A stretch of 63,024 nucleotides of DNA, the filler included, from Alcyonidium flabelliforme (taxonomy: Eukaryota), in NCBI GenBank assembly GCA_026167845.1. It is 37 parts of 37 records of this genome, joined end to end, with 100 filler letters (N's around TTAATTAATTAA, not from the genome) between each part and the next. Parts side by side here need not be neighbours in the genome. Positions count along the whole stretch, not along the records: positions 28,225 to 29,823 come from JAOQFJ010000103.1; 36 more parts are not named here. One strand, given 5' to 3'. The first letter of the stretch is position 1. Each line of letters starts with the position of its first letter. Positions 3,813 through 63,024 of the stretch are shown piece by piece. A model generated the notes under the pieces. That model did not search any database. It was given only the letters and a program-made list of their open reading frames with translations, and was not told the DNA's origin. Both the position numbers and the translations under genes were made by a program.

Positions 3813-5018
3813 ATGTATATGGGTTCAATGGTTTCATTTGGTATTGGGAAACTAGAATTAGATTGGGGTAAAAATAACTCTTACAGCGATCATGGCTCTT
3901 TATTTCAGGTCAGTGATGTAAAAGATATCCCTTATTATTATTCGGATAATATTATTGAATATAAAGAAGGCTTAAGTCGAAAACTTGGATCAACAAAAAG
4001 ACGTTTAGACCTTCTTGGCTACAATCTAGATTCTCTTAAAAGGCAGTATGAAGATCATTTAAATGAAGTTCCAGAGTATTATCCTGATATACCTCTACCA
4101 TTTTACGATTTCTACTCAATTATATCTAATTTAGATATTTCTAAAATGACGCTTGATGATGAGTGGGAAGATTATGACCCTGGAGAGTTCCTTTCCAAGT
4201 ACTTATTTAAACACTCAGAATTTAATAAAATACATAATTTGTCAGAGATAGTAGATAAAGATATTGGATTGGTCTTTGAGAATATTGATCCTTATATTAC
4301 ATTACGTATTTTAGCTGAAAATCAGGCTAATAATGATCTTGATGTTTTTTGGAGTTATGCTGATATAGTCAATAACGGCTGGGTTCGTAGAGATGAAATT
4401 TTTGAAAAAGTAGGTGTAGGTCAGGAAATTTTATTTGTTACAGAAGGTTCGTCAGATACTCACATACTAAAGAAAGCCATACAGTTACTATATTCAGATA
4501 TCTCTGATTTTTTCACATTTATCGACATGGAGGATAATTATCCATTTACGGGAGATGGGAACCTCTATAACTTCTGTAAAGGGCTTATAAGTATTGGTAT
4601 TAAAAAAAATGTTTTAGTTATATTTGATAATGACGTAGCAGGTGTGGCTAAATACAATCAGCTGAGTGAAATGGATGTTCCATCTAATATGCATATTATC
4701 AAGCTACCAAATCACGCATCTTTTGAATCCTATAAGACAATAGGTCCACAAGGTGAAAGCTTCGAAAATATTAACGGTACAGCTGTAGCCATTGAATGTT
4801 TCTTAGATCATTCAGTCATTGACAGTACGGAATCTTGTATTAGATGGACTTCATATAATAAATCATTGGATGCTTATCAAGGTGAATTGATTGATAAAGA
4901 TAGATATACAAGAAAGTTCCTAAAGTTCAATCATAATAATGGTAATTATGATTACGAGAAGTTGAAATTTTTGATTGATTTTATATATAACGAGTGGATT
5001 GGGAGAGTTTCTCAATAA
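3813..5018 (+). CDS. HEPN/Toprim N-terminal domain fused to an OLD-type Toprim domain (putative defence nuclease)
   Basis: N-terminal MGSM......ELDWGKN signature; Toprim FVTEGSSD and IFDND.AG; GAGG RBS. Confidence 0.8.
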   Translation: MYMGSMVSFGIGKLELDWGKNNSYSDHGSLFQVSDVKDIPYYYSDNIIEYKEGLSRKLGSTKRRLDLLGYNLDSLKRQYEDHLNEVPEYYPDIPLPFYDFYSIISNLDISKMTLDDEWEDYDPGEFLSKYLFKHSEFNKIHNLSEIVDKDIGLVFENIDPYITLRILAENQANNDLDVFWSYADIVNNGWVRRDEIFEKVGVGQEILFVTEGSSDTHILKKAIQLLYSDISDFFTFIDMEDNYPFTGDGNLYNFCKGLISIGIKKNVLVIFDNDVAGVAKYNQLSEMDVPSNMHIIKLPNHASFESYKTIGPQGESFENINGTAVAIECFLDHSVIDSTESCIRWTSYNKSLDAYQGELIDKDRYTRKFLKFNHNNGNYDYEKLKFLIDFIYNEWIGRVSQ

Positions 5019-5255
5019 GCGAATTGAACTAGAACTCAATTCTGAACTATATTTATTTGCTATCATTTGGCTACGCTACACTTTTTGATAAAAGCTCGCT
5101 GCGTACTGTTAGCACTTTAAGAAATGTTATAAGCAAAGTTTTATTTTGAAAGCACTTAAACCTAGTATTTTAGCTAACACACCTAAATTACTGAATACAG
5201 TTGAGCTAGCCAAGATAACTACTAAGTTATTAGTATATTATTTAAGTTTACATAT

Positions 5256-15798: not shown

Positions 15799-16129
15799 GG
15801 TAGTATATAGTAGTGGTTTTTATCTTGCACTGTGCACTTTTAGCCTTTTATCTGTCATTTATTTATGGCTGTTTTGTAAATACACGTTTGTTTCATCCAC
15901 CGGGTGTAGTCACACTCGACCTACTGTGATAGGTTCAATAGAACCTCTAGTAGTAAACTACTTGAAGACTCTGATTAATAGTCAATAATACATTAATAGT
16001 AATTTACACTTACACTTAATACAGGTTNNNNNNNNNNNNNNNNNNNNNNNNNNNNNNNNNNNNNNNNNNNNTTAATTAATTAANNNNNNNNNNNNNNNNN
16101 NNNNNNNNNNNNNNNNNNNNNNNNNNNGA

Positions 16130-16626
16130 AACGGGCGGAACCAAACAATACAGATGAACAAACTCGCTTTTTCAAATTACCTTACCTAGGTACTTTTTCT
16201 AAGCGTACTCGTATTAAGCTAGAAAAACTGGTCAAACGTTATTGTGGTAATTTGAATATTCGTATTGTATTTCAGTCATTTAAAATTGGTTCCATGTTTA
16301 GTTTGAAAGATCCTATGTCTCTGAAATCTCGTGTTATTTATCAGTTCAAATGTAGAAGTTGTGATTCGACTTACTTGGGTGAAACATCCCGTCATTTAAA
16401 CACGAGAATTGCTGAACATCTTGGCAGAGATAAGAACTCTCATGTTTTCAAACATTTACAGGAATCTGCGGCATGCAGAGCTACTTGTGATCCTACATGC
16501 TTTACAGTTTTGGATACTGCAGACAATGTTTATAATTTGAGGCTTAAGGAATCGATGTACATATTATGGAATAGGCCGAATTTGAATGGACAGATAAAAC
16601 ATGCCTTTTTAAATATTTGTGTTTAA
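16130..16626 (+). mobile_element. Penelope-like element 3' end, GIY-YIG endonuclease
   Basis: VIYQFKCRSCDSTYLGETSRHLNTRIAEH ... LKESMYI...PNLN. Confidence 0.92.
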
Positions 16627-16754
16627 ATGTCAGTTTGAGCGACATCTGTTGGTAGTTTTAGGTTTTACTTTATTATCTCCCCTGTTAATATTGTAGCCAA
16701 TAAGCGCTTTCGTTGATTGTATATATAGCTTTGTGTTGGCCAGTTTGGCGCATT

Positions 16755-16790
16755 TTTGAAAATGAAGTTAGAGACTTCGAAACTAGTCAA
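16755..16790 (+). ncRNA. Minimal variant hammerhead ribozyme motif
   Basis: TTGAAAAT, stem GAAGT/ACTTC, GAAA, palindromic CTAG, TC; downstream of a PLE ORF. Confidence 0.55.
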
Positions 16791-17230
16791 GTTTGAATAA
16801 AACCAACTACGATGATACGTTTTAAAAGTATCGTGTTTTTTATCATTGCAATTTGAAAAAGAAAATAAATTAGTTTCGCTAGCAACTTGAATATTGTGCC
16901 CTCAATAAGAAGTACACGTATATCGACGTTTAGCAAAATGACTCTGACATTGAATTTTCAAATCATCATTCAGTTGCAGAGTAAAAGCCTATTTGACAAT
17001 AGGTGAAACGTAGCAAAGTAAGAACTAATTCCAGTATTTGATTCAATTTATCTCCATTCTAATGCAAACTGGATGACTCAAAACATTCATTCTATACTCT
17101 ATAAACATCCAATTACCAGTGTAGGTATTAGCACCAACGCAAGACAACAGCAAATGCATCGTGGTTAATAAAATCAAATCAACAACATAATATTAGGATG
17201 CATTGAATATAGAAAACAACGCTTTTAAAA

Positions 17231-17272
17231 GTCGACATGTTTCAACGTGTATTCTTCACATTATTCTCAAGA
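17231..17272 (-). ncRNA. Minimal variant hammerhead ribozyme motif
   Basis: Minus strand CTTGAGAAT, stem AATGTG/CACGTT, GAAA, palindromic CATG, TC. Confidence 0.55.
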
Positions 17273-17379
17273 CAAATGGCGATGTAAACAAAGCAACCTC
17301 ACTATATATAGCGTGGGTTGGTATAAATACAGGAAGGTAACAGAAACGTGGAATAACAGGACAAGTAATTAATTGAAAT

Positions 17380-17615
17380 CTAAACATACAGCGTAATCAA
17401 TTCATGTGTAAGCTGAGCATTTAATACAGGGTGTTCTTTAGAAATAATTAACCCTTCCTTCAACCTTAATTTAAATTGATTACTATCAGAATCCAATATA
17501 GAAAAACACGATTCATTAGACAATCTCTTGCAGTTGGGATTATTGTCCAAATGTATGAAAACGTGCGATGATTTGTTACTTCTCAAATGTTCCTTAATCC
17601 GGGTTGTCAAATGAT
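17380..17615 (-). mobile_element. Second, 5'-truncated Penelope-like GIY-YIG end, convergent with the first
   Basis: TRIKEHL...SHVF.HL...C.....CFSILD......LKE.L.I...P.LN. Confidence 0.85.
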
Positions 17616-17629
17616 GAATGTAATCATGA

Positions 17630-17776
17630 AATCTGCATCATAGTCAAAAAATTCAAAAAAATCGGTAAAGGGGTAAATTTGAGATCTTTGTATCCAAAAA
17701 ACCTTGTCGGATGACAAGGTTTTCGAAATTTTCACTTAGTTAGGATAAAAAGCTCCAATTTACCCCTTTACCGATT
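17630..17776. mobile_element. Palindromic MITE, partial; family shared with the copies near 47900 and 59900
   Basis: AATCGGTAAAGGGGTAAATT / AATTTACCCCTTTACCGATT arms. Confidence 0.75.
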
Positions 17777-28224: not shown

Positions 28225-28335
28225 CGAACAAGATACTTTTATTTGAAGACTTATTCAATATTGCCTGTCTTAAAATATATTTTCAGTATAAAAATAAGAA
28301 ACTTCCTAATTATTTTCAGGAAAACAATTTCAGAG
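28225..28335 (+). pseudogene. CR1/L2-like LINE ORF2 C-terminal fragment
   Basis: NKILLFEDLFNIACLKIYFQYKNKKLPNYF parallels LLFDDLLKLSILKLYYKHCCKNIPSYF in the LINE at 9625. Confidence 0.65.
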
Positions 28336-28695
28336 AAGGTAAACAGTGCATAAATGTACTGGTTAAGTTGTTACCAGGGCCTGATATCACCGTTATGTAA
28401 GTGAGCACCCTGAAGTAATACTCATGGGTAGCAACTTGTTTGTGGAAATAGTATGAAACAAATCACTTAGCTGTTATGTTGAAGATTCTGTATGGGCTGT
28501 GTTGGGGTCTTGGTTGTACTGTCTAGGTCGAACTTGTAGCTTCTTTTGCATCAGTAACAGGGATGTTGGTTGTTCTTCTTAGGTTGTCGTCTGTTGTCAA
28601 TCAGTTTTGGTCTATCAGTCTTCTCTTCCATTGTTGATAGTTGCATCTAGATACAGGTCAGTTCGTAGTCAGATTTTGGTGACTTCATCGTTGGC

Positions 28696-29300
28696 TTAGT
28701 GTCTAGGGAAGTTGGTGGTTCTTTGTAGATCAACAACGGTGACGTTGGTGCTTGCGTCAACTAGAGTGTGTTTTACTGGTTCAAACACATCTAACTTTGA
28801 TTTGTGTGGGTGGAAGCCAGTTTGATGACAGCTTGCAATGTAATGAAGCCCATGGTCTGGTGTAAGGTGGTAGTAACCAGTTTCTTGAAATTTTGCCGAA
28901 TGGACTATGGCAATGGCTTCTGGCATCATCAGTTGGTATGGGCAATGTGTGTGGAGATCAACACTTGAGAGGAATGCAGTTTGGGAAGGATGAGTGTGAA
29001 TCCAGCCCAGCGTTATAAGTTCTCTGTCGAGTTGGTATGCGAGAATGTCTTCTTCTCTCTCTGCTGCACACGAATTAGCTGTTCCATGTTGTTCAGGGAT
29101 TAGCAGATGTGTATTTGAAGATCTCTGTGTGTTGCCTTCCCAGACAATATACCACATGTTTCTATGTTGTGCTTGGTGTTGTGGAGGGCCACTTCTAAAA
29201 ACTGCTTGATCAGGTCGTATGGTATCAGCACGTTTCGCAGATGTCTGGAGTCCGTAAGATGTACTTCGTCTTCGCAGATGGTGGCATTGATGTCTTCCAT
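28696..29300 (-). pseudogene. Intronless AMSH/STAMBP-like JAMM (MPN+) deubiquitinase domain with one frameshift near 29111
   Basis: LRNVLIP..L..QFLEVA..NT..NIETCGILSGK then HLLIPEQ.GT..SC, LGWIHTHPSQTAFLSSVDLHTHCPYQLMMPEAIAIV, C...GFHPH. Confidence 0.92.
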
Positions 29301-29440
29301 GTGGTTATCTTATGTTGTGGTGATTGGGCTGGGAGTTGGTTGGGTTGATGTGGTTGGTTTCTCAGGAATGTCACAATTACTGCTCGTATTTTCAGGAGCA
29401 GTGGTAGATCTCTGTGTGTTCAGTCTACATCTCATTGGGG

Positions 29441-29695
29441 TCTCTGGACTTCGGATGAAACTGTGGTTTGTTTCAGGAGGAACGCACTCATTGTCAGTTA
29501 CTTCTGGAACAATGGTGGATCTCTGTTTTTTGCAAGCCCCTTGAGTTTTCTATTGAGATCGTGGTGGTTCACAGGAGGACCAAAGTCAGTGCTAGTAGCT
29601 TCTAGAACAACGGTAGGTCTCTTAGTCCTAGCATTCCTTTAGTTCTTTAATGTCTTTGTATCTTGGACATTGTGATGGGAGGCTGTGTCTTGGTG
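29441..29695 (-). repeat. Segment homologous to the retrotransposon tail at 62764-63024
   Basis: Colinear alignment by eye, including identical TGACTTTGGTCCTCCTGTGAACCA and CACCAAGACACAG.CTCCCATCACAATGTCC. Confidence 0.93.
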
Positions 29696-31622
29696 ATGAT
29701 AAAGCTTATGGTAATAAAGTATACAAAATGCCACCAGGGGGACAACTGAAAGAGGGAAAATGACGGAAATCAGAAACAGTTGCCATATTCATGCCAGGAA
29801 CAAGGATACAAAATTTTTTCAAANNNNNNNNNNNNNNNNNNNNNNNNNNNNNNNNNNNNNNNNNNNNTTAATTAATTAANNNNNNNNNNNNNNNNNNNNN
29901 NNNNNNNNNNNNNNNNNNNNNNNCTTTTATTACACTTTGTTACATAATAGACTTACTCAAAACCACAGTTGTTATAAATCCTCTTAATGTGGCCAGAACC
30001 TTTAACATATTGTGACTTGCAAAAAATATTGATATTTTCTTTTTTGTGAATTCTGCTTGGCCATATTCTTTGGAATAAATTTACAAAATAAATTCTCACT
30101 TTTCTCGTCGATTTGTAATGAAAAAACACCTTTTTCTGAAGACCGGTGAAAAATCCGACTTTGCTAGAAATCACGTGACATATTCGCCCCTCCTACCATA
30201 TACGTCATTTGACCTAGATCAACATCACAACTCCTGGGAAAATGGCTACTCGAAAGAAGCGTGGTGTAAAGCCCAGTAGAAAGTCGCCGAAAGTTCCCTG
30301 TCCGCGACTTCTAAAGCAATTTTAAAGCTCTCGAACAAAGGTTCCTTTTACAATCAACCGGAGAGTTGGTTTGCGATGCGAAACAAGGGTTAGAATACCG
30401 GGACGCTCTCGGGTCCTGGGTCAGTGTGATCCCGAGTACCATCGGCATCGTTTAGTTTGGTTAAGTTACTTCACTCATCCATATTCCCTGCATTCCTTCA
30501 CCAGCTTCTCTGTTGCCTTTTTCAATGTTTCTTTTCTACTTGTAGGCATCGTGATCATCAATTATTTTACGTAATAAGTTGCAACAAATAAATCTTCACT
30601 CGGAAGCGTATTATAAACATGTGTTGACCTATATATCCATAATATGGAAAGCCCCGCCCACATAATCAATATTCCAGGTCACATGATTAAAGTTTTCGCA
30701 CAATTACCTACCCATTGGATTATTTAGCTATTTTTTACCAATCATGGGCCGAAATGTCGTAGGCACGTGTCGAAACATATTTTATATGCTATTCAGCTTC
30801 CAGACGAATGGTTTCCCGCTGTTTTGGAGTGAAAATTGCTCCACGAGGACTGTTTGAAGTTTATAGGATTGAAATCTCGATTTTCTAGGCTTTTGAATTT
30901 GTGATATCTGCTGTGATTTGAATTTATTTAACTCATTATCACAGTAGGTTATGAATAGTTTTAGAAGCTATATCGCAAGAAGACACATTGATCCTCAATA
31001 ATGTGTCTCGGATTTTTGAAAGGGCGTCTAGTTTTATTTTCAGGGACATGTCCTGAATAAAATTGCAGACGCCCAAATTTCAAACAAGTGGCCCGCCTTT
31101 GAAACAAAGTTGCAAATTAACAGAGCTATGTATCAAAATTTTGAGACACCTTTTTGTGCTAGACACATGGCATTTTCGGATGCAATTTGAATTACGCAAT
31201 TTCCTCAAAAGGTGTAAAAGTTAAATTCTTATAAAGTTAAACCTGTAGTTTTTGCGGTAAATGGCAGCAATTTCGTTACCATGGCAACAAATTGGACCAC
31301 AATGTAGTCGGATTGAAAGAAAAAAAACTGACTAAAAAGAAAATGTATACATTATAATACTTTTAGTCTCTAGTTTTAAAGATACATTGTAACAAAGATA
31401 ACTAAGAAATAAACGGTTCTCGCCCCCTTAAGGATTAAAATGAATTCCAGTAGAAGAGCAATTCTTTCATTTGTTATCCATCTTGTTTAAGAAAATATTT
31501 CTAAACATGCAACACTAATANNNNNNNNNNNNNNNNNNNNNNNNNNNNNNNNNNNNNNNNNNNNTTAATTAATTAANNNNNNNNNNNNNNNNNNNNNNNN
31601 NNNNNNNNNNNNNNNNNNNNAA

Positions 31623-45470: not shown

Positions 45471-47341
45471 ATATTTAGCTAAATATTGGCAAATAGGGTG
45501 TTGTTTTCAGCCCGAGTTACAGACGTGTAAAAAGGGCCGGTGTTTTTCACCATCAGATGTGTAAAAAGTGTATATTTTTCAGCCATCAGATGAAAATCAG
45601 CCCGGCATAAACTTAGAGACTGGGCAGAAATTACCCCAGGGGGGAGCAAGGAAAAACCAAAAATTGTCCCACGTAACATCATTTACCCTTCAGCTTCTGG
45701 GGCCCTCGCAGGGCCAGGCTTGGAAAAATTAATAGCTGTGCGTACACAACCCATTATAACATATACAATCAACTTTATTGCACATCTCCCATCATCTGTG
45801 CAGGATATGCTAGCTTCATACATTCTACATGATGTTACTTAATTATGAAACCGGTCCGAATTTATTTTTGGCAGTCAGGGCCAGGTAATAATGAGAGGTA
45901 ACATTTTTTATTTTTGGATGCATATAGGGGATGCATTTTTATTTTGGCCTTCGTCATGAACTGAATTCTCCCGAACATTTATTAATCTAAAGAGTATACG
46001 TAGAAAAAATTAGACTTCAAATATTATTATTAACTATCAATTGGAATGTTTGTATCCTATTGCAATAAATGAATATGAACATTTTAATCTAGGTACATGT
46101 ATATAAGGTGTTTTCTTTAATTTCTAACAATTTTAGTTAACATTTTCTCTTTCAAACCAGATCTATAAATTGCGTTCTAAATTTCATAATTTTCCCACGG
46201 GGGAGTACCCCCGGACCTCTCTTCAATACATACCACCAGGCATTTAATAAATAATAGGTTTTTTAAATAACATACTACCATGCCATTCTTTATCAGACAA
46301 CAGAAAAGAACACTGCAATGTGATGACTATATATATATATAAGTACTTTATATAATATTTATGTACATCCCCTGGATACAGTTAGGCAGTATGAATAATG
46401 TTAAGATGATAAAAAAATGACAGTCATTCCACAAAGCCCCAAGAATACTTGTTGCAGTAATTTAAATTAAACAGAATTTGGGTTACATATTCCATCTAAT
46501 TAACGAGTGTGCTTAAGTCTGAAAAAACAATTGTGTAGGCATTTTTTTGGAAGTTTTAAATTTAGGTTATAGAGTAGTTTTGCACTGGGTAGTGATCAGG
46601 TCCTTTAATTCTTGGTGGAGTGATCCGGGCTAGTGCTTTTGNNNNNNNNNNNNNNNNNNNNNNNNNNNNNNNNNNNNNNNNNNNNTTAATTAATTAANNN
46701 NNNNNNNNNNNNNNNNNNNNNNNNNNNNNNNNNNNNNNNNNAATTTCACCAAATTTTACATCAAGGATTAAACTATGATACTGGAAAGTCTTAAGATAAA
46801 CACCCTGTCACCACGCTAGATATGAGACTCCAAAATGTAATAAAAACTGTTAAACTTGAAATATGCAATGACTGCTGTAATGCATCGTATAAGAAATGCA
46901 GATTTGATTTTTTTTACAATCTGATTTTTGTCTTTTAAACAAGTGAAAGGGTTCCTTTCCAAGATACACTAGTCAAAAAAAGTATGGAATATTTTTTTCA
47001 TCGGGGTCGCGTTTTTACATTTCACGAAGGATAGTAAAAGCATTTGATGGCTGTGAAAATATTGTCTATTATGAACAAAATAAAAGCAATTTGATGAATT
47101 TCTGAAAAAAAATCTTGAAAATATGACGTTTCAAAAATGAGAGATGAAGAAAAAAAAATGACATTCAAGTTGTTTTCATAAAAGTTTGGAATTTTTCATT
47201 ATAATTTTCATTTTTGCAAACAAAAAGCTTTAATATGTCATTATTTGGAAAGAAAATTATTAAAGTAAAACGATGATCGTATTTTGGAGTAATTTCATTG
47301 AAAATTAATTGAATTCGATGACATTTTAATAAGAGCAGTCT

Positions 47342-47686
47342 GTGGTTTGTAAATTAGCATCTTTAATTTGTCATGCAAAATCACGCCTACCTTTACTTAG
47401 TAAGAACAATGTTGTTTATCAAATCAATTGTGACAATTGTGACGCTTATTACATCGGTTTGACTCAAAAGAGATTAGCAGATAGATTTCAAGAACACCAC
47501 ACCTCTGACAAAAGCAATGTATTTAGGCACTGTCATGAAAAGAATCACACTGCTTCTCAAATTAAGGTTTTAACAACTGAACACAGCAGGGAGAAATTGT
47601 ATATCAAAGAAAGTCTTTTTATTCAAAGTACTAAACCATTGTCTTTGAACAAAGACGTCACCTCTGTGCAACTGAATCTGTGGTAA
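47342..47686 (+). mobile_element. Third Penelope-like GIY-YIG 3' end
   Basis: VVYQINCDNCDAYYIGLTQKRLADRFQEH ... IKESLFI...P.SLN. Confidence 0.9.
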
Positions 47687-47781
47687 CCATGGTGCTCTCT
47701 CTAGCTATGTTATAAATTGTACTTGAATTCACTCTACCACTGACTGTTCTACAAGCAAGTCATGTTTTTAACTGTTCTGTA

Positions 47782-47820
47782 ATTGATAATGCTTTAAAGA
47801 AATAAAGCGAAACGTCTTGA
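47782..47820 (+). ncRNA. Minimal variant hammerhead ribozyme motif
   Basis: TTGATAAT, stem GCTTTA/TAAAGC, GAAA, CGTC. Confidence 0.55.
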
Positions 47821-47896
47821 TTTTAAATATGAAGTTGTTCATATGCGCTCTGATAATCAGATTTTTAATTCTGCTCTGGCCAAAGACAGATTTAAT

Positions 47897-48146
47897 TAGA
47901 AATGTTGTGTATGAGTCCTTTGATGAACATAACTAACTTGCATCTGAGTCAAATAATTCTAAAAAATCTGTAAGGGGTGATTTGAGAGCTTTTTATCCTA
48001 AAAAAGTCTAACCTAGTCTTAAGAGAGGGTTAGATTTGGATACAAAAAGCTCCCAAAAGCCCCTTTACAGATTGTTTTGAATTTTTTTACTAAGATGCAA
48101 GTTATAGTTATGTTCATTAAAGGACTCTTACACAAAATTTCTAGTT
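47897..48146. mobile_element. Palindromic MITE, complete copy
   Basis: GAGTCCTTTGATGAACATAACT / AGTTATGTTCATTAAAGGACTC arms and inner inverted repeats. Confidence 0.85.
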
Positions 48147-48426
48147 GATTTCAATTTTGACGCCAGATTGGGACCAACGAGGAGACAGTATCTTTAAACG
48201 TCGGGCTCTGAAGACCACCAACAATCATAAAATTGCTCAGTACTTAATTGCTTGGAGAATGCATAATCGTCACAATTGCTAAATCTTGAACATTGGGTTT
48301 TATNNNNNNNNNNNNNNNNNNNNNNNNNNNNNNNNNNNNNNNNNNNNTTAATTAATTAANNNNNNNNNNNNNNNNNNNNNNNNNNNNNNNNNNNNNNNNN
48401 NNNACTTTATATCATGAGTTTGCAAG

Positions 48427-59780: not shown

Positions 59781-59899
59781 NNNNNNNNNNNNNNNNNNNN
59801 NNNNNNNNNNNNNNNNNNNNNNNNTTAATTAATTAANNNNNNNNNNNNNNNNNNNNNNNNNNNNNNNNNNNNNNNNNNNNCAACGCAAATCAACTAAAA

Positions 59900-60102
59900 A
59901 TGTTGCTAGTGTACGAGTCCTTTGTTGAACATAACTTACTTGCATATGAGTGAAAAAGTTATTGATTGAGAGCTTCTTATGCCTTAAAAAGTCAAACCTA
60001 TTCTAGAGAGTAGGTTAAAGTTAGACACAAAAGATCTCAAATCTTCTTGAATGTTTTTACTCAGATGCAAGTAAGTGTGTGTTCAACAAATGATCCATAC
60101 AC
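59900..60102. mobile_element. Third, internally deleted copy of the palindromic MITE family
   Basis: GAGTCCTTTGTTGAACATAACTTACTTGCAT matches 47913 onward; inverted arm at about 60060-60097. Confidence 0.8.
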
Positions 60103-61505
60103 ATACCAATATACAAATAAAACCAGTTTCAATTCATTGCAATCCTTAAATAAGTAGTAAGTTTACAGAATATTCATTTCCAATATGGGTTAGCTACGTC
60201 GCATATGGGCATATCACTGTACAGCACTACAAACGTAACTTTGATAGCAATTAGCCATAACCTAACAAGTACTATGAACAATTATAACGTTAGAACCCAC
60301 CTGCTGAAATAAGCAGGATTAACTATAGGACAATAAACTGTCAGTGGATTAATTCTTATCAAGACATATGCAATCCAACAAAATCTGGACTTATCGCCAT
60401 TGAATTGTAGTGCATTATTGCCAAAGAAACGTTAACAAATGAACATGGAGTTCAATTAAGACTTTTATGAAAAACTTAAAACACTCCTAAGATTAGTTTA
60501 GGAATTAGGATATCGCTTTGAAATTAGTTGATGTGTTCGTGCGTTATTTGCTAACAAAATAAAACAAAATATGCAGAAAAGTTATTCATGATGGGAAAAT
60601 GAGTCTACAATTTCATAAAGATAAGAAGCTTTTCGTAACCTTCACCGCAAGAAAACTATGTAGGAAGTCTTAGACGATAAATACAAATTCACATTACGAA
60701 GTAATGATCATTTCCACCCAGTGTGTCGTTTGTTAACAACAGTCCTTTGGTTGTGTTTGAGTGCTACCAGGGTTTACCTGAAAGAAATATGTAGTGAATT
60801 ACCAATAAAAAAACCATGCTACTTAGAGCTAACATTCCAAATTATGAGACACCAGATATATAATATTGAAGCATAAGATAAGATTTAACTTATAAGAATT
60901 CTGAAGGTACAGTTGATTATGAGCTTCAAGTATCCAGGTTTTAAGTATCCAGACTAAGTCATAACATCTCGTTTCTTTTGATATGTGTTTGATCTGCATG
61001 GTATGCTTTTTATCAGAATGAATCCATTGGAATTACCTGCCCCTTCAAATTGTGCCAGAGTCCACCATGGCCGGGTTAGTTCTCTGTTTTGTTGAGAGAG
61101 CCCATAAGTCGTATCTGATACCATTTGTGAGCATTTTCTGAAATAAACATACTGAGTTTAGTCATATAATGTGTTTCGTGTAAAACAAATTCAAAACAAT
61201 TGTCCATACTGTATTATGAATCTAAGCAAATATTTGGTCACATCACGTGACCTCATTCCCTCAACTGAGGAAAATGTTTTTGAAAAAATGTTTCATACTA
61301 AGCCGGACTTGGGCTTGAATTTAACAAACTTTGTTAAAAAAATAACTGAAAATGGTTAAGTTGTAGGCCTTTTTCACTTATTGATAATTCTACACTTGTA
61401 AGTAGNNNNNNNNNNNNNNNNNNNNNNNNNNNNNNNNNNNNNNNNNNNNTTAATTAATTAANNNNNNNNNNNNNNNNNNNNNNNNNNNNNNNNNNNNNNN
61501 NNNNN

Positions 61506-63024
61506 ATGGAATTGAGTCAAAGAATTGGAAGAAAGAGAACGCCATCTCCTCATCAACTAGATGTGCAGAGGACAACATGACAGAGCTGAAATTGGGTTTC
61601 ATCGACATCAAAAACTCACCAAAGCTATGACCCCATCTGAGCACAGAAAATGTATCTCCAGCCTCATCAAAGAAGTTGATGAAGAGGACATGATAATTTT
61701 CCTCCACTCCTGTGCCAAACAAGGACAATTCCTTAAATGGGACACTGCCATGCAAGTAGATACATCTTGGAACAAACTACTATACGTCTGGTCGCCAGAA
61801 CTACTATCATTTCACATCAATGCCATCCACGATCTGCTACCATCACCAGCAAATCTAAAACTGTGGGGAAAAACAGATACTGGCACATGCAAACTATGCC
61901 ACCACACCAATTGCACACTGTTTCACATCTTAAATGGTTGCAACTACTCACTCCATGATGGCCGATATAACTGGCGACATGATCATACCCTGAAGATGAT
62001 TGCAAATGGTTTACTTCCATTCATCACTGATGCTAACAGTCAATCCAACCATGACTGCAACAACAGACACCACACTGTTAAAGCACCCCAATTCAAGACT
62101 GCTAGTGGAAGATCCTACCACAACCCTGATCTTCCCTTTGCTGAAGATTTTGCCACCAACATCCTAAGCAGAACCAATGACTGGGTCCTAATAATGGATG
62201 AAGAATTTAACCAGATGGCATTTCCTCCTCAAATTTGTGAAACATCAAAGCGACCTGACATAACCATCTTCTCTCAGAAGACGCAAACAGTAATAATAAT
62301 TGAACTTACTGTACCAATTGAGGAAAACCTGGCAAATGCCTATGCTAGAAAGAAATGCAAATATGACCAACTAGTAGCGGACTGCGAAAACAGAGGATGG
62401 AAAACATTTTACTTTCCCGTCGAGGTTGGCAGCAGAGGCTTCTACAACACCTCTCTAACGAAATGCCTTGCAGCCCTTGGAATACCAAGAGGTCGCCGAA
62501 AACCAATCCTAGACGATGCCTCCAGAACAGCCCTTCGAGCCAGCTACTTCATCTGGCTGAACAGAAGAAACCAACACATGCAGCGGTGTGATCTTACACA
62601 CACAGAAATGAGGGAAGAGAGACGGTTGAGCGCTCATGAAACCGGTTTAACCCACCAAAGTCTGGTCCGAAGTCCAGAGACCTCATCACAAAGACCTACT
62701 GCAGCTCCAAATACTGCAAAGGACTGTGTTCAACAGGAAGAGCTTACCAATCCAAGCAAAAAGCACCAAGACACAGTCTCCCATCACAATGTCCGAAATA
62801 CAAAGACATCAGGGAACCCCAGGAATTCCAGAGCAAAGAAACCAACCATTGTTCTAGAAGCAACTAACAATGACTTTGGTCCTCCTGTGAACCATCACTC
62901 TCTCGACGAAAGTCCAGGGACCTCAGAGAAATCAAATGGCTTGCAAAAACAGAGATCTGCTATTGTTCCAGAAATGACTGACAATGACTGCTAAGACAAA
63001 CCAGTTTTATCCGTAGTCCAGAGA
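61506..63024 (+). mobile_element. HERO-clade non-LTR retrotransposon ORF: zinc knuckle, restriction-like endonuclease and an unusual Ser/Thr/Pro-rich tail; 5' partial
   Basis: CKLC...TLFHILNGC, GRYNWRHD, RPDI, IELTVPIEEN, KKCKY, PVEVGSRGF, ASYFIWLNR. Confidence 0.92.

Follow-up and report, generated by a model that had tools for sequence, protein, structure and literature searches.

The locus raises the question whether an AMSH-like JAMM deubiquitinase lying behind an RLE-type reading frame belongs to a family of non-LTR retrotransposons or to a single odd copy, and what such an enzyme would do there. An earlier note on this DNA had proposed a family with the order RT, RLE, linker and JAMM. 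The window, i.e. the whole stretch of 63,024 nucleotides that was analysed, consists of 37 contigs of 1.5-1.7 kb each, a mixture of eukaryotic and bacterial DNA with spacers (N44-TTAATTAATTAA-N44) in between. Parts of the stretch were contained in eleven public runs, with a share of at least 0.3 in five of them (labels marine/estuary metagenome or coded organisms). Assembled contigs of four runs (X1, X2, X4 and X5) were aligned to the window.

Two broken element copies in the window

The strongest cross-contig match within the window connected contig 28225-29823 (minus strand) to contig 61506-63024. Alignment of the two contigs affirmed that 29695-29441 (minus) and 62764-63024 are exactly colinear, as had been described (75% over 272 columns, E 9e-52). 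Interrupted by a single TAA (29312-29310), the frame of QRSTIVPEVTDNEC indeed crosses the linker and reaches DSRHLRNVLIP...ETCGILSGK. Over its initial ~150 nt, the alignment lies in another frame and not, as had been assumed, in the same one; further stops and 61% amino acid identity to the unbroken protein P0001 (see below) were found there. The one-base frameshift near 29111 was recovered, followed by WIHTHPSQTAFLSSVDLHTH and C..TGFHPH, and the frame ends with TAA at 28698-28696. The second contig had been taken for the tail of an RLE ORF. It is 98% identical to P0001 residues 651-1145, but the ORF itself is broken by a stop at 62992-62994, caused by a copy-specific 8-nt gap, and by two more stops near its start.

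The extent of 28696..29695 given previously turned out to be too short. Thirty-eight X1 contigs depart from the window at 28332/28333 into diverse, unrelated flanks (flank agreement 0.4), which places the 3′ end of the element at 28333; an A-run beyond this end was seen in one X2 contig. The proposed truncation at 29695 stood, as an X4 contig continues beyond this position into the sequence of the second contig and the window copy is therefore 5′-truncated. Thirty-seven X1 contigs match the flank 29696-29823 and then diverge at 29696. The following features were assigned:

28333..29695, minus strand: 5′-truncated, inactivated RLE-JAMM copy (linker, JAMM, 3′ UTR); tblastn match to P0001 residues 1070-1407
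29244..29695, minus strand: Ser/Thr/Pro-rich linker remnant, with a degenerate copy of the xxRSPET/hairpin motif at about 29459-29444 and the copy-specific TAA at 29312-29310
29113..29243, minus strand: AMSH/STAMBP-type JAMM, N-terminal part, containing the catalytic Glu (ETCG; codon 29162-29160)
28696..29112, minus strand: JAMM, C-terminal part past the copy-specific frameshift, 97% identical to P0001 1270-1407; stop TAA 28698-28696
within 28696..29112, minus strand: JAMM ligands HxH (28998-28990), Asp of SxxD (28959-28957) and the second-zinc ligands H, C and HxH
28333..28695, minus strand: 3′ UTR with its terminus at 28333; the last ~120 nt are kept at 75% in the divergent subfamily L001
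29696..29823, no strand: host sequence flanking the 5′ truncation point; this flank is a multi-copy repeat interrupted by the insertion
61507..63024, plus strand: another broken copy, from the same subfamily and located on the other contig, 98% identical to P0001 651-1145 and cut by the window end; contains thumb region, CCHC knuckle (about 61888-61941), RHD, RLE and the start of the linker
within 61507..63024, plus strand: RLE motifs PD (about 62254-62259), ELTVP and KCKY
62610..62684, plus strand: motif resembling a twister ribozyme, within the ORF where RLE and linker meet (Rfam Twister-P5, 27.8 bits; gathering score 37.6)

A common 3′ end, variable 5′ truncation and dispersed copies characterise the element as an RLE non-LTR retrotransposon. 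Comparison of the flanks of the one window copy disclosed no target-site duplication; RLE elements often lack target-site duplications. All X2, X4 and X5 contigs covering the respective sites were devoid of the frameshift and the TAA, six X1 contigs also lacked the frameshift, and the 8-nt gap of the second contig was absent from contigs of all four runs compared. Stop and frameshift of the window copy are copy-specific.

Intact fusions and the identity of the JAMM domain

The JAMM piece of the window was searched against proteins of 245-2000 aa, and the best 120 of 2323 matches were evaluated, a set in which divergent RT-JAMM fusions ranking below host STAMBP, e.g. the domain of the metagenome contig L001, would be hidden. 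The best two of these 120 matches, P0001 and P0002, contained RVT_1 and JAB in one unbroken ORF with the order RT, CCHC, RLE, linker and a terminal AMSH/STAMBP-type JAMM. P0001 (1407 aa, ENA assembly) is 97-98% identical to the window pieces, and P0002 (1443 aa, JGI assembly) shares 80% with the JAMM piece. P0003, third among the best 120 of 2323, comprises the RLE tail, linker and JAMM; P0121 combines RT with the first part of JAMM. In L001, a full ORF extends into the linker where the contig ends, and JAMM plus 3′ UTR lie at the contig start. Because the contig ends share 126 identical bases, we infer that this JAMM belongs to the L001 ORF. The proposed architecture is thus borne out by unbroken single ORFs and by four or more subfamilies, two of which are represented by P0121/P0003 and by L001, and an occurrence of JAMM behind the linker of merely one copy was excluded.

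Across the subfamilies, identity to P0001 amounts to 81-86% for RT and 58-77% for JAMM, and the linker is 40% identical or unalignable; its similarity collapses where JAMM and RLE stay conserved. RVT_1 of P0001 is located at 244-508 (E 7e-21) with YADD at 421, and the RT is missing from the truncated copies of the window. The motifs CxxC-x7-H-x4-C (778-795), RHD (807), KRPD (898), ELTVP (916) and KCKY of P0001 are also present in the second contig; for the RHD/ELTVP motifs of these elements, we presume that the label HERO-type is appropriate. With regard to a HERO-like non-specific insertion, the 3′ flanks of the element are diverse, and head-to-tail joins were seen as well. The spacing between CCHC and endonuclease agrees with the description in the accessible text of PMC5678591.

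Those relatives of P0001 that bear a species name come from Mnemiopsis (44%), Coilia (31%) and Seriola (29%), as proteins without a label. A profile search of proteins of 2527-5000 aa yielded no longer JAMM fusion among 1997 candidates, none of 101 matches to the JAMM motif pattern on viral contigs was confirmed, and GTDB genomes gave no match to this pattern. Since the window, P0002 and L001 types, i.e. three subfamilies, were found together in X2, X4 and X5, the family may be limited to one host species or its close kin.

The C-terminal JAMM piece of the window matched Pfam JAB (E 8e-11), and its similarity to human STAMBP (E 4e-43) and AMSH-LP (E 8e-37) was far above that to BRCC36 and Rpn11. 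The second-zinc ligands H, C and HxH (Ins-2, the K63 determinant) align to STAMBP and AMSH-LP in all four element domains. The zinc ligands E, HxH and D, which had been reported for the window copy, are present in four of four, as is the motif E-xn-HxH-x7-S-x2-D in the form given in the available part of PMC9313428. The catalytic Glu of ETCG corresponds to the position changed to Ala in PDB 3rzv. With Pfam, P0001-P0003 gave no match to the MIT/USP8_dimer domain. The STAM-binding pattern was missing from the four element proteins and present in three of five hosts. The element domain is predicted to work as an AMSH catalytic domain and is not a STAMBP gene.

A JAMM tree was calculated from 51 rows, namely four element domains and 47 host domains, mostly of arthropods and taken from the best 120 of 2323 matches. 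The element domains formed one clade among animal STAMBP (SH-aLRT 100), on a stem of 0.69 at an unresolved fork of animal STAMBP; owing to this long stem, their specificity may have drifted. As judged by sequence, the sampled element JAMMs have one origin, and a single capture, from an mRNA of an animal host, is the likely source of the domain. The dN/dS ratio of JAMM, determined by the Nei-Gojobori method for one pair only (window and L001), was 0.20 (bootstrap 0.10-0.31, 173 codons) and thus well under 1, with dN 0.26 and a dS of 1.31 that is near saturation. The thumb/knuckle/RLE region gave 0.10 (0.07-0.16, 340 codons); constraint is weaker on JAMM than on the RLE region. The JAMM fusion is real, occurs at the level of the family and, as the substitution pattern indicates, is under selection.

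The C-terminal slot in relatives and the likely making of the fusion

Relatives were gathered from the P0001 search (107) and, with a profile run on 50%-identity representatives, from the best 150 of 2425 matches at E 1e-30. Domains were called by Pfam on two chosen sets of 32 and by local profiles on all 252 relatives; the JAMM label of L001 was set by hand and the DarT label originated from the Pfam subset. Among 188 relatives reaching the end of RLE, the C-terminal slot contained USP in 18, JAMM in four and DarT in one, one relative possessed an N-terminal Ulp1, and 164, some of which may be cut or frameshifted, had no recognised domain. These 164 include the closest sisters, and the domain is therefore dispensable for the lineage. 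The DarT domain (Pfam, ssDNA thymidine ADP-ribosyltransferase, E 4e-25) was observed in a single sequence, P0282, at residues 717-865. N-terminal Ulp1 (C48) domains occur in more distant relatives (P0196 373-542, P0270 122-294).

A C-terminal USP is carried by 19 proteins, one of them partial: P0125, P0126, P0127, P0129, P0133, P0134, P0169, P0205, P0258, P0265, P0267, P0268, P0303, P0309, P0316, P0329, P0337, P0341 and P0364. Catalytic Cys, His and Asp are kept in 18 of 18 aligned USP domains, whose mutual identity is mostly 18-36%. The carriers are spread over several parts of the RT/RLE tree, and the USP groupings largely track the RT groupings (three changes; shuffled mean 6.0; 0/200 shuffles), a pattern in keeping with numerous losses and an inheritance that was for the most part vertical. 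The USP of P0134 is much nearer to a solved structure (human USP8, 209 bits) than that of P0125 is to any solved USP (59 bits), suggesting a separate, younger capture. C-terminal USP on RLE retrotransposons is the larger and older counterpart of the JAMM fusion. The ESM Atlas yielded only RT or UCH clusters, under 0.9.

In the RT/RLE tree, the JAMM clade (100/100) is sister to the JAMM-less P0122/P0123 (100/100), and both reside in a larger group with moderate support (80/95), to which USP carriers also belong. The tree does not establish a direct replacement of USP by JAMM; the AU test, for which 7 of 29 rows were left out of the tree, leaves a USP clade without the JAMM lineage unrejected (p 0.10).

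Six of eight members of the P0123 cluster are C-terminally complete, each with SEGRGTVERS as its last residues. One frame off the JAMM ORF, this sequence also occurs in L001 and the window, and therefore the JAMM lineage reads through the ORF end of its sisters. In the closest JAMM-less sisters, the ORF ends at the twister-like motif in the other frame, through which the JAMM elements read. At its gathering score, Rfam gave no match in the whole window; below this score (37.6), Twister-P5 matched at three loci, in the window (62610-62684, 27.8 bits) and in L001 (4604-4678) and L002 (1360-1434) with 22.5 and 20.0 bits. With regard to P4 and the two pseudoknots, a structure hand-drawn from the same three sequences had 94% of cells paired, with two double-sided changes, and 63 of 500 shuffles attained as much. 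Helix P2 was left out as it was unpaired in two of the three sequences in that register. Covariation in P2 of the twister alignments was only apparent and caused by a one-base register shift. The motif also contains an 8-nt palindrome (AACCGGTT / AACTAGTT) which is still palindromic after a double change. Contig ends did not accumulate at the putative twister cleavage site, although such an accumulation would not be visible in assembled contigs.

Degenerate copies of the motif hairpin recur within the linker. A frame change may have let the ORF pass its former end at the twister-like motif, the linker would have grown in part by duplication of the segment containing this motif, and the extended ORF could then have reached an intronless STAMBP fragment. 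Between subfamilies, the linkers vary in length and repeat unit, and that of L001 contains a 225-bp tandem duplication (4745-5182, 98% identical).

In L001 the 3′ end is joined directly to a 5′ region, which is conserved upstream of the L005 ORF (74% over 145 nt), and an X4 contig runs from the 3′ end of the window copy into a 24/28 match to the L001 junction. Thus, head-to-tail joins exist in two subfamilies; such joins (L001 883-915; window 28333) suggest tandem arrays or self-targeting. GAAAG-loop hairpins recur in the conserved 5′ region (L001 885-1200, L005 1277-1416), which also includes an invariant block of 21 nt; Rfam gave no match to it in L001/L005, and its folding z-score was -1.4.

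Proposed function and comparison with known systems

The window copy is dead. For the family, we propose with a probability of roughly 0.62 that the conserved C-terminal AMSH/STAMBP-type JAMM, likely derived from one capture of an animal mRNA, acts as a predicted active, K63-selective deubiquitinase in cis during retrotransposition. The domain is very probably an active enzyme, and a preference for K63 chains is probable. According to the available part of PMC9313428, AMSH-type domains function as monomers and owe their K63 selectivity to Ins-2, the specificity of AMSH-LP being set by Ins-2 with its zinc, and K63 chains label damaged chromatin as well as cargo of selective autophagy. Tethered behind the endonuclease by a flexible linker of 100-300 aa, JAMM would remove K63 chains near the RNP of the element. 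As candidate substrates, chains that arise at the nicked target (damage signalling) are put slightly ahead of chains attached to the RNP itself, by which it would be directed to autophagy. The presence of an unrelated ubiquitin-cutting domain in the same slot of many relatives suggests a gain from removing ubiquitin signals. Since these USPs are of the promiscuous type, what the elements need in common would be the cleavage of K63 chains. The linkage selectivity of AMSH-type JAMMs ranks among the highest of deubiquitinases, and this makes the prediction a sharp one, that K63 chains oppose retrotransposition. Natural intact ORFs with JAMM (P0001, P0002), with USP (P0125, P0134, P0267) and with neither (P0398, P0400) constitute a comparison set. 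RLE retrotransposons are in development as insertion tools; a ubiquitin-editing domain at the insertion site would therefore be of practical interest.

Other explanations have to be weighed against this proposal. That the two window pieces reside on separate contigs of a mixed assembly might point to a one-off chimera or an artefact of joined short contigs; this was refuted by the unbroken ORFs of P0001 and P0002 in ENA and JGI assemblies and by a 988-nt X2 contig spanning linker, JAMM and 3′ UTR, so that its chance is close to nil. A STAMBP retrocopy that was fused a single time and has since persisted without being of use would agree with the lack of any such domain in most relatives and with a possibly narrow host range. 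However, JAMM is in frame across four subfamilies, dS exceeds 1 at a dN/dS of 0.20, and third codon positions account for 82 of 164 differences; a neutral passenger is very improbable and already largely refuted. A somewhat less remote but still improbable role is that of a module which binds ubiquitin chains or serves as scaffold, like inactive MPN domains, and steers the RNP to ubiquitinated chromatin with catalysis being incidental. The JAMM dN/dS, twice that of the RLE region, and the long stem branch fit such a role, against which stand the complete catalytic ligands in four of four subfamilies at 62-77% domain identity and the intact triad in 18 of 18 USP counterparts.

Unlikely, albeit deserving attention, is a self-protection away from the genome, by which the active JAMM would deubiquitinate the protein or RNP of the element and thereby allow its escape from autophagy, lysosome, proteasome or innate sensing. 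The same conservation of JAMM and its clade are in agreement with this, and the nearest solved structure of the P0134 USP is USP8, which, like AMSH, is an endosomal deubiquitinase. For Helitron VTD domains, a shielding of transposition proteins from degradation has been proposed (accessible text of PMC9741609). On the other hand, the K63 selectivity of AMSH-type domains suits proteasome escape poorly, and the endosomal targeting parts (MIT, STAM-binding motif) are missing from the capture.

With a K63-selective deubiquitinase acting in cis as the favoured interpretation, the elements can be compared with known systems. AMSH/STAMBP and AMSH-LP (PDB 3rzu, 9le4, 2znv) have the JAMM motif, Ins-1/Ins-2 and the second-zinc ligands in common with the element domain, which is about 60% identical to animal orthologues. 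The latter differs by the absence of MIT/USP8_dimer, STAM-binding motif and introns, by its fusion to RT-RLE and by faster evolution. HERO-clade elements likewise possess a single ORF with RT, CCHC knuckle and RLE and many insertion flanks, HERO being a mostly non-specific RLE clade (PMC4640811, as far as its text was available). Unlike them, the JAMM elements add a C-terminal extension of 200-400 aa ending in JAMM (USP or DarT in relatives); a C-terminal domain of these types on HERO elements was not found in the accessible text of the literature searched. NeSL and Utopia-1_TSP are RLE LINEs with an N-terminal Ulp1 protease (PMC4640811), and cryptophyte Dualen carries a C48 peptidase on an RLE-bearing LINE (PMC5029228; both sources in part). 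All of them, like the JAMM elements, combine an RLE-bearing LINE with a protease for ubiquitin-like modifiers, which is an N-terminal cysteine protease of the SUMO type in NeSL, Utopia and Dualen, whereas the JAMM elements have a C-terminal zinc metalloprotease and predicted K63 cutter.

Ginger1 transposases contain a C-terminal OTU or Ulp1, and one Trichomonas transposase a Peptidase C19 (PMC2836005); Helitrons harbor OTU and VTD, and different classes were suggested to be exchangeable (PMC9741609). The roles proposed there, in the accessible parts of both sources, are to protect from degradation or to act in DNA-repair signalling. Ginger1, Helitrons and the RLE relatives have in common that a transposon protein offers a slot for exchangeable deconjugases; Ginger1 and Helitrons are DNA transposons with papain-fold enzymes only, whereas the retrotransposon slot accepts enzymes of unrelated chemistry, cysteine USP and zinc JAMM. 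Twister variants occupy the 5′ end of Schistosoma Perere-3 LINEs (PMC8501958, available text); here, in contrast, a twister-like motif below the Rfam threshold lies at the ORF end (sisters) or within the ORF (JAMM elements).

The earlier note, which knew of no described example, had overlooked that deubiquitinase cargo has precedents among DNA transposons; no JAMM on a transposon was found in the accessible literature. Neither this architecture nor a C-terminal USP on an RLE LINE was encountered in the open full-text literature as far as accessible, or by term look-up in the available parts of PMC6431247, PMC5718144, PMC5678591, PMC13586686, PMC7650587 and PMC8557442. OTU, Ulp1 and VTD deconjugases of transposons have long been known, their targets still being only proposed in the literature accessible to us. 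Transposon-borne deconjugases are therefore already known; notable here are the zinc chemistry, the slot shared with USP and the sharp K63 prediction.

The fusion is also a case of an RT-RLE protein that acquired an MPN domain recently in evolution. The C-terminus of Prp8 is formed by a Jab1/MPN domain, which is inactive and located after an RNase H domain. The Prp8 large fragment resembles RT, linker and endonuclease of RLE LINEs (PMC5678591, accessible text). As the element JAMM nests among animal STAMBP, Prp8 is a convergent parallel and not an ancestor. A more far-reaching idea, which we put forward tentatively and rate as rather doubtful, is that this RLE branch has a dedicated C-terminal anti-ubiquitin slot filled repeatedly by host enzymes of unrelated chemistry, i.e. 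by USP (at least one recent USP8-like capture) and, once, by a K63-specific JAMM, which would be the first metallo-deubiquitinase on a transposon. Their interchangeability would pin the host barrier on K63 chains, the twister-like ribozyme within the ORF may switch between a protein that has the domain and one that lacks it, and by convergence the Prp8 order of RT, endonuclease and MPN would be rebuilt in the fusion.

Apart from the two element copies, the window contigs 16128-17776, 46742-48303 and 59881-61405 share a repeat (68-80%). ORF remnants on two of these contigs resemble what we take to be Penelope GIY-YIG endonuclease tails.
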